Below are positions 31,018 to 31,880 of a DNA stretch of 64,000 nt, one piece after another (position 1 is the first letter of the stretch; the number at the start of each line of letters is the position of its first letter). Location of the stretch: the NCBI RefSeq assembly GCF_058153355.1, contig NZ_JBLWLY010000002.1, one strand, 5' to 3'. This DNA is from a plasmid. Below the pieces are notes generated by a model. That model saw only the letters and a list, made by a program, of their open reading frames with translations. It did not search any database and was not told where the DNA came from. The position numbers and the translations under genes were made by a program.

Positions 31018-31880
31018 ATTACAGCTCACCGACTGCGGGGAAACACGGGGCGCTGGGTTATTGAAGGTGACCTGTCCAGCTACTTCGACACAGTACATCA
31101 CCGGCTGCTGATGAAAGCCGTCTGCCGCAGGATCAGTGATGCACGTTTTATGAGACTGCTGTGGAAAACGCCGTGTTGATGTTGGTCTCTTCCGGGCGGT
31201 CAGTGAAAGTATGCCACAGGGCGGTGTGATCTCGCCGTTGCTGTCGAACATCATACTGAATGAGTTCGACCAGTATCTGAATAAACGCTACCTGAGTGGA
31301 AAAGCCAGAAAGGATCGCTGGTACTGGAATCACAGTATCCAGCGAGGCCGAAGTACTGCTGTCAAAGAAAACTGGCAATGGAAACCTGCCGTTGCTTACT
31401 GTTGCTATGCCGATGACTGTGTGCCACGAAGGCGCGTCCTGGGGACGTGAGTCCCTGTGCAGCCATGCGGCACAAGAGATGAGGGAAGGCCCCTCGGTGT
31501 CGGCGTGCAGGCGCAGGCACCAAACCATCCACTGCTGCTGCATTTAAGAGATGTGGTGGTGAGCGAGATGGGAAAAGGTCGGACGTGAGCCGATCAGGTA
31601 TGGTTCGAAGAGACGAACGAAAGTGAACCGCTGATGATGTGTCGAAAGCGTATAGATGATGTCAAAACAATGGTGGAGTCGTTCCTGTGGGATATGTTTA
31701 CTGCCTGCGCGGCATCCGGCATAAAAGCGGCGTGAAGTCGATTCAGGCTCTTGTGGGGAACGTGGACCTGTCACCCCGACGTGAAGGGAGAAGCGCAAGT
31801 GGAAGCCCCATGAGCACCAGAGTACCAATGCGGGGTACAGGGACGGAGCACCAAGCGATTGCGCAGTAAACATGCTTGAC
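31018..31880 (+). other. Degenerate group II intron-derived segment (second lineage): RT domain 3-5 fragments followed by a ribozyme domain I-like stretch
   Basis: Short ORFs with ..GDLSSYFDTVHH.., ..MPQGGVISPLLSNIILNEFD.., ..YADDCV..; 31540..31870 is roughly 70% similar to the 5' region of the intact introns (e.g. 19380..19700). Confidence 0.55.

Follow-up and report, generated by a model that had tools for sequence, protein, structure and literature searches.

The locus at positions 31018-31880 of the window, i.e., the whole 64,000-nucleotide stretch of plasmid DNA that was analysed, is very probably a non-functional twintron relic carried on an insertion sequence (IS), in which a group II intron that homes into YADD codons entered the reverse transcriptase (RT) gene of another group II intron and was then truncated. 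The outer intron is represented by RT motifs 3-5 of an E.c.I4-like element of class A, and the inner one by the 5' end and domain I (DI) of a P.l.I2-like element of class D. Neither the fragments nor the mechanism are new to the literature: both pieces have been catalogued, as E.c.I4-tr4 and S.s.F1 (PMC3522654), and homing into YADD codons has been published (PMC2504315). What is new here is that the two fragments are read explicitly as the relic of a twintron, with EBS-IBS pairs that match.

The window is part of a pINV-type virulence plasmid of Shigella and enteroinvasive E. coli (EIEC). It carries icsA (24743-28051, minus strand) and the RnaG sRNA (28070-28189), and virA lies just upstream of the locus. 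The junction region (30900-32100, 1.2 kb) was found at 98.8% identity in the pINV plasmids of S. sonnei, S. flexneri, S. boydii and EIEC, and the DI stretch (31421-31890) at ~99% in that of S. dysenteriae as well; in 117 plasmid records, the coverage of this 1.2-kb query reached 80% or more. As the arrangement of the RT and DI pieces is common to many pINV plasmids, it is real and old and not an assembly artefact. The junction was present before the pINV plasmids of the four Shigella species and of EIEC diverged and hence can serve as a stable marker. No database plasmid was collinear with the window as a whole; collinearity with the S. sonnei pINV was limited to 24162-33321 (99.5%), and PLSDB held no record covering at least 80% of a 25-kb query from the window. 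A 259-bp direct repeat (96.9% identity) connects the right side of the locus (32842-33100) with the far end of the window (63496-63754) and is probably part of a repeated IS fragment.

On the left, the locus is flanked by pieces of two insertion sequences. The 5' part of an IS629, with its left end, orfA, the frameshift pseudoknot (Rfam ALIL at 30241-30357, 120.8 bits) and the start of orfB, lies at 29907-30649 on the plus strand. It is 94.6% identical to the IS629 copy of plasmid pCoo (NC_007635 60735-67145, here L003; compared at L003 1107-1851), and homology in the window is confined to 29907-30650. This piece comprises the 5' 743 bp of the element and is broken 51 nt before the position of E.c.I4 in the IS629 of pCoo. 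It is followed by an internal piece of IS3 orfB (30650-31017, plus strand), decayed and frameshifted, which is 91.4% identical to the IS3 of E. coli K-12 and ends with the codons GAC ATC ACG TAC T (GDITY+1, within ...WAGDITY). At 30649/30650, IS629 is joined to an internal position of IS3 orfB, the two positions being non-homologous. The first-pass annotation had assigned the sequence that ends in GDITY to orfB of IS629; with IS629 homology stopping at 30650 and K-12 IS3 matching from there on, the element is IS3 instead. Its wider suggestion of an IS3-family host was borne out by the IS3 orfB found as the 5' flank of the RT piece, and its remark that introns in IS629 are known in E. coli holds for pCoo, where E.c.I4 does sit in IS629. 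This correction from IS629 to IS3 and the base-exact outer junction described below are additions to the literature.

The E.c.I4-like RT fragment extends over 31018-31418 on the plus strand and was identified by its identity to ltrA, a Pfam RVT_1 match and literature coordinates. Its motifs, FDTVHH, PQGGVISPLLSNI and YADD, are distributed over two ORFs: the one at 30979-31179 contains GDLSSYFDTVHH, including FDTVHH, and the one at 31211-31450 contains MPQGGVISPLLSNIILNEFD (also given as PQGGVISPLLSNIILNEFD) ...CYADD and matches RVT_1 with E = 5.5e-7, in line with the earlier description of RT domain 3-5 fragments at this place. In E.c.I4 numbering, the piece corresponds to intron nt ~1100-1516 of 2270. 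Its closest relative is a copy on plasmid CP057604 (89.6% identity); the ltrA annotated in the 2270-nt E.c.I4 of pCoo is 83% identical at the DNA level, and ~1700 enterobacterial plasmid ltrA genes match the RT half (31018-31420) at 83-90% identity. The comparison with E. coli introns resident in IS629 and IS3-family elements, which had been proposed earlier, thus places the piece in the E.c.I4 family. A retron or another non-intron retroelement had been named as a possible alternative source; the fragment is not closest to any of these, and its close DNA relatives are all annotated as group II intron ltrA with DV directly downstream.

The reading frame of the RT piece is disrupted by one 1-nt and one 11-nt deletion. 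Neither a complete ribozyme (DI-DVI) nor an intact ORF accompanies it, only nt ~1100-1516 being left; the EBS region of the outer intron is missing, and the 5' ribozyme of E.c.I4 (pCoo, L003 1902-3000) found no match anywhere in the window. In some pINV records, e.g., as QGX89770.1 in CP046677, the 79-codon ORF at 31211-31450 is called a 'reverse transcriptase'; it is a truncated pseudogene fragment whose end lies in the sequence of the inner intron. The fragment corresponds to E.c.I4-tr4, a 405-bp class A fragment reported on pINV with 84-85% identity to E.c.I4 (Leclercq & Cordaux 2012, PMC3522654, Tables S2/S3), the pSS_046 coordinates of which translate into 31018-31422 of the window.

E.c.I4, a group II intron of bacterial class A from E. 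coli, has its homing sites in the transposase genes of IS629, IS911, ISEc16 and ISEc31 (Leclercq & Cordaux 2012, PMC3522654). The piece described here shares with this IS3-family homing intron its sequence similarity and, as in the pCoo copy, a 5' flank consisting of an IS3-family orfB cut at the homologous D-x-T-Y+1 position. It differs from E.c.I4 in belonging to a diverged sub-lineage, the nearest member of which resides in an IS3-like element on a cnf2 plasmid, in being reduced to an internal part with a broken frame, and in its host, as IS3 itself is not among the published hosts.

The IS3 exon (...ACGTACT) stops at T31017, which is the exact -1 nucleotide of an E.c.I4-type insertion site, and only the 5' exon side is present. 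Across this site, the IS3 of K-12 reads GACATCACGTACT/TACGTACAGATGAAGG (slashes mark insertion sites and junctions). The E.c.I4 of pCoo is located at the homologous position of IS629, at GATTTTACTTACG/GTGTGCC, and the relative on CP057604 has its 3' splice junction, CTCTAC/TACGTACGGATAAAGG, in an IS3-like orfB, the 3' exon starting with TACGTAC. In the window, T31017 is followed by intron nt ~1100 and not by nt 1. Such a link between an exon complete to its last base and the interior of the intron is the expected remnant of abortive cDNA synthesis or of partial reverse splicing followed by end joining, and incomplete reverse transcription is given as an accepted source of 5'-truncated bacterial introns in PMC2504315, citing Dai & Zimmerly 2002. 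Within the twintron reading, the truncation could also be a later deletion that ended at the exon-intron boundary by chance, an explanation to which somewhat less than an even chance is assigned. Some other junctions of the locus are indeed plain deletions, and either incomplete reverse transcription or rearrangements may fragment introns (PMC2504315); the IS3/nt-1100 endpoint would then be exact by coincidence, with a prior of ~1 in 1000 for an endpoint anywhere in IS3. However, the junction is exact to the base, and neither an IS end nor a repeat that would account for a site-specific deletion was found at 31017/31018; the same junction shows no microhomology and no non-templated bases pointing to a mechanism. 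Abortive retrohoming and later deletion are considered about equally probable as causes of the outer 5' truncation. The E.c.I4-tr1 copy of K-12 (ykfC) was considered as a second exact 5' truncation and rejected, since it is 3'-truncated by IS5 with its 5' side intact.

Directly 3' of ...TAT GCC GAT GAC T in the outer RT gene stands nt 1 of the inner intron, a P.l.I2-like group II intron of class D from which the first 430-450 nt are left (31419 to ~31850, plus strand), with the 5' end and DI into the DII/DIII region. It was recognized by RF01999, by identity to a Citrobacter braakii intron and by literature coordinates. Its first bases, GTGTG (31419-31423), align with the start GTGCG of a Rhizobium intron and with the start of the C. 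braakii intron, which puts the GUGYG consensus at the exact boundary. Rfam RF01999 (group-II-D1D4-2) matches 31481-31599 on the plus strand with 116.9 bits against a gathering score of 36 (E = 2e-24), and the stretch after the RT motifs is intron domain I, as had been noticed earlier. Among the matches listed, the closest to the inner piece was nt 1-450 of the full-length 1882-nt C. braakii intron (92.2%). The copy of Photorhabdus thracensis is 87% identical, and an RmInt1-like intron of a Rhizobium plasmid, aligned at the 5' ends, 75%; the piece stops ~100 nt before the ORF start of this Rhizobium relative. In the plasmid collection, relatives of the DI half (31421-31890) above ~75% are confined to pINV-type plasmids of Shigella and E. 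coli; elsewhere the best one is the RmInt1-like intron. The piece corresponds to S.s.F1, a 432-bp pINV fragment of class D (PMC3522654, Tables S2/S3; pSS_046 coordinates equivalent to window 31419-31850). The 90% identity of S.s.F1 to P.l.I2 of Photorhabdus is the figure of that paper, our own comparison being with the C. braakii and P. thracensis relatives.

The C. braakii intron encodes a 469-aa RVT_1+GIIM protein and interrupts its host RT at VRYADD/MVFTF. Nothing in the window matches its nt 451-1882 at an identity of at least 80%; the inner piece has no DIV ORF, DV or DVI, and no matching DV hit was found in the window. On the right, the locus ceases to match the C. braakii intron at ~31850. 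A possible 18-nt patch of the inner intron's own RT ORF (HQAIAQ region) lies at 31849-31866 on the plus strand and matches nt 911-928 of the C. braakii intron at 17 of 18 positions, with E = 0.03 in a small database; if real, it would tentatively suggest an internal deletion that preceded the final break. To the right of the patch follows pINV sequence with a 140-codon ORF that has no Pfam match. Further to the right, a weak DV/VI hit conserved in pINV was detected on the minus strand at 34398-34478 (Rfam RF00029, 37.3 bits, below the gathering score of 40). It was considered as the lost 3' end of either intron and rejected, as it has only a 37-nt match (84%) to the DV of E.c.I4 from pCoo and none to the inner intron type; it is probably a separate small intron fragment.

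The target of the inner intron can be read directly from the sequence. Positions 31406-31418 on the plus strand encode Tyr-Ala-Asp-Asp plus one nucleotide (TATGC-C-GATGACT), with IBS2 TATGC at 31406-31410 and IBS1 GATGACT at 31412-31418. According to the multiple alignment, EBS2 GCGUA (31648-31652) pairs at five of five positions with TATGC (-13 to -9), and EBS1 AGUCGUU (31677-31683) at seven of seven with GATGACT (-7 to -1). EBS1 and the exon covary among relatives at positions -1 and -2, as in C. braakii (UGUCGUU and GACGAUA), and in a clade that targets IS6 elements EBS1 CUUCGUU is compensatory to the exon GAYGARG. It could be argued that two unrelated fragments were joined at 31418/31419 by IS-mediated deletion or recombination, without any retrohoming, as IS and intron fragments abound in this region and several of its junctions are clearly illegitimate, e.g., those at 30649/30650 and ~31850. 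Such a juxtaposition by chance is very unlikely, for a random breakpoint would need to land on nt 1 of the inner intron, at the one 13-nt site that is the published target of its lineage, and to produce 12 of 12 EBS-IBS pairs, including the lineage-specific A-U pair at -1.

The two halves, searched separately, have disjoint sets of relatives that belong to different classes (A and D). Because of this, and because nothing in the window matches the 5' ribozyme of E.c.I4, it was concluded that the locus contains two introns and not one. The first-pass annotation had recognized decayed group II intron remnants, which is correct for both the class A RT piece and the class D DI piece. It had regarded them as one IS629-resident intron with RT and ribozyme parts in a non-canonical order, brought about by internal deletion and rejoining. 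It is true that both pieces derive from group II introns, share the strand and adjoin each other directly, and E.c.I4 does reside in IS629 elsewhere, for example on pCoo. A single rearranged intron is nevertheless extremely improbable in view of the disjoint relatives and different classes, the unmatched E.c.I4 5' ribozyme, the start of the DI piece at exactly nt 1, its pairing with the flank, and IS3 as the flanking element. The order of RT followed by DI is what is expected of an inner intron inserted in an outer RT ORF; the inner piece begins at its exact 5' nucleotide and its EBS1 and EBS2 are complementary to the YADD flank.

For the twintron relic, the following course of events is proposed. 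First, an E.c.I4-like class A intron would have entered the orfB of an IS3-family element, in this case IS3, by retrohoming into the D-x-T-Y codons that such introns usually target. It may have arrived 5'-truncated, if cDNA synthesis was aborted or reverse splicing remained partial and the ends were then joined, or may have lost its first 1.1 kb later. A second, unrelated intron of the endonuclease-less class D lineage typified by P.l.I2 would then have entered the RT gene of the first. Its EBS2 and EBS1 RNA loops would have paired with TATGC and GATGACT, and reverse splicing right after these bases would leave GUGUG abutting ...GATGACT; by analogy with RmInt1-type introns, the inner intron may have been primed at the replication fork. 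Later deletions would have taken away what followed ~nt 450 of the inner intron together with the remainder of both the outer intron and IS3, and would also have brought the 5' 743 bp of IS629 up to the left side. The order of events and the cause of the outer truncation are reconstructions. Of the twintron junctions, the inner 5' junction lies within the outer intron, and the 3' junction is deleted together with the downstream outer intron; we infer the insertion from the 5' junction, the 3' junction, the 3' exon and IBS3 being gone from the window. An intact twintron of an E.c.I4-like and a P.l.I2-like intron is predicted to have the 3' junction ...CTCGAC/TCGTGCTTATC. As DV and DVI as well as an intact ORF are lacking, the locus is judged from its sequence to be non-functional, and neither piece should be able to splice or move today.

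Homing into YADD codons has been published for P.l.I2, M.a.I5, UA.I3 and B.th.I3, the last of which targets AGGTATGCTGATGACT (Tourasse & Kolsto 2008, PMC2504315; Dai & Zimmerly 2003, cited there), and archaeal homing into intron ORFs is described in the review of Zimmerly & Semper (PMC4424553). The members of the P.l.I2/M.a.I5/UA.I3/B.th.I3 lineage are presented in PMC2504315 as endonuclease-less IIB, class D-type introns that form twintrons in the YADD codons of RT genes. The inner intron has the same kind of 5' end as this lineage and the same target, R/C-Y-A-D-D codons plus one nucleotide with IBS1 and IBS2 in the active-site motif, and the full-length C. braakii member likewise cuts its host RT after YADD. 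It differs in that only its first 430-450 nt remain, in that its host RT is of class A (E.c.I4-like) and not from a closely related intron, and in that its 3' junction is lost, which makes the locus a relic and not a working twintron. The DI of RmInt1 (Sinorhizobium meliloti, class D, En-minus) and its relatives belongs to the same Rfam family, RF01999, and the 7-nt IBS1 and 5-nt IBS2 separated by one base are also shared. These introns are at most ~75% identical to the inner intron, however, and their target is a transposase gene and not an RT gene.

When the conserved 5' end GTGYGCCACGAAGGCGCG was scanned in 100,044 species genomes, at least 120 loci were found, with 32 true relatives among the matches listed. 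The 5' exon consisted of [YF]ADD-type codons plus one nucleotide in 18 of these 32, and of the WHLDE codons of IS6-family transposases in three. The latter target is that of a sister clade with ~75% identity to the inner intron (L004, L094, L101, L007 and L006, from Rhizobium, Mesorhizobium and others). It sits after GA(T/C)(A/G)T(C/G)TGGCAC(C/T)T(C/A)GA(T/C)GA(G/A)G, i.e., the W-H-L-D-E catalytic codons of the transposase, with EBS1 changed to CUUCGUU. The target thus appears to have moved from the active site of an RT (..GCC GAT GAC) to that of a transposase (..CTC GAT GAG), with a common core CGATGA.

Further copies of the inner-intron type were observed. The S. sonnei pINV contains a 3' portion of such an intron, nt 434-1882 (S.s.F2), which is 95.7% identical to the C. 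braakii intron. It is located at L125 3085-4520 (NZ_CP019696 134085-135520), and its left side is an internal part of IS2 orfB (...YDNAPMESFWGTLKN). Its 3' junction, CTCGAC/TTGTAGTAC, follows right after the YADD codons of an E.c.I3-like RT; an uninterrupted copy of such an RT in the window reads GAGAGGTACGCTGACGATA/TTGTAGTAC, and the C. braakii intron has the 3' junction CTCGAC/TGGTATTC. S.s.F2 is absent from the window. In the S. sonnei pINV it lies ~13 kb from S.s.F1 and is broken at almost the same position, the two fragments (nt 434-1882 and nt 1-450) overlapping by ~15-17 nt. The proposal that S.s.F2 is the missing second half of S.s.F1 (PMC3522654) was rejected in its simple form on account of this overlap and of the different host exons, an E.c.I3-like RT for S.s.F2 and an E.c.I4-like RT for S.s.F1; the near-coincident breakpoints hint at a more complex recombination history. 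On the E. coli plasmid CP065623 (L127 2878-3254), an inner-type 5' end (nt 1-256, then cut by IS630) stands directly after the YADD of an RT of its own lineage (PDVPFERYADD/G) and is a self-lineage twintron remnant. In P. thracensis (NZ_CP011104, L014), RF01999 matches two DI, at 100-216 and at 1132-1250, with a spacing of 1 kb, and the second intron starts after ...FERYADD; this pair is a Photorhabdus twintron like the published P.l.I1::P.l.I2.

The window also contains three copies of an E.c.I3-like class D intron with Rfam DI and DV hits, at 19270-23771 (plus strand), 38500-36476 (minus strand) and 60100-62127 (plus strand). Their DI, at 19329, 38438 and 60160, is only 73% identical to the ribozyme half of the locus, and both pieces of the locus are distinct from these copies, in agreement with the earlier assignment to a second lineage. 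The first copy is interrupted at ~20818-23076 and accompanied by a small inverted duplicate of its 3' end. In all three, a 258-bp segment is inverted relative to the copy on pCoo, and the inversion probably lies in the latter. pCoo itself shows a triple nesting, in which the E.c.I3-like intron (L003 1-1106 and 4686-5256) is split by IS629 (from L003 1107), and IS629 in turn by the complete 2270-nt E.c.I4 (L003 1902-4171).

What appeared to be a scrambled intron consists of two catalogued fragments that form a twintron relic. No new kind of element or mechanism is revealed, and the value of the finding is mainly one of annotation; the 79-codon "reverse transcriptase" CDS of some pINV records is a dead fragment. 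The locus illustrates layered parasitism, with an IS invaded by an intron that targets the D-x-T-Y codons of transposases, and this intron by another that targets the YADD codons of RTs. On a more speculative note, to which we give somewhat less than half of our confidence, one P.l.I2-like intron may have struck pINV-type plasmids several times independently, on the YADD codons of three RT lineages (E.c.I4-like of class A in the window, E.c.I3-like of class D on the S. sonnei pINV, and its own on CP065623). Separately, the junction of IS3 with intron nt 1100 would be a natural example of LINE-like 5' truncation in bacterial retrohoming. With several independent strikes, the YADD-homing intron would be a cross-class hyperparasite. 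If this is true, group II introns of Escherichia and Shigella may owe their extinction in part to an intron that splits the active site of the RTs of other introns.
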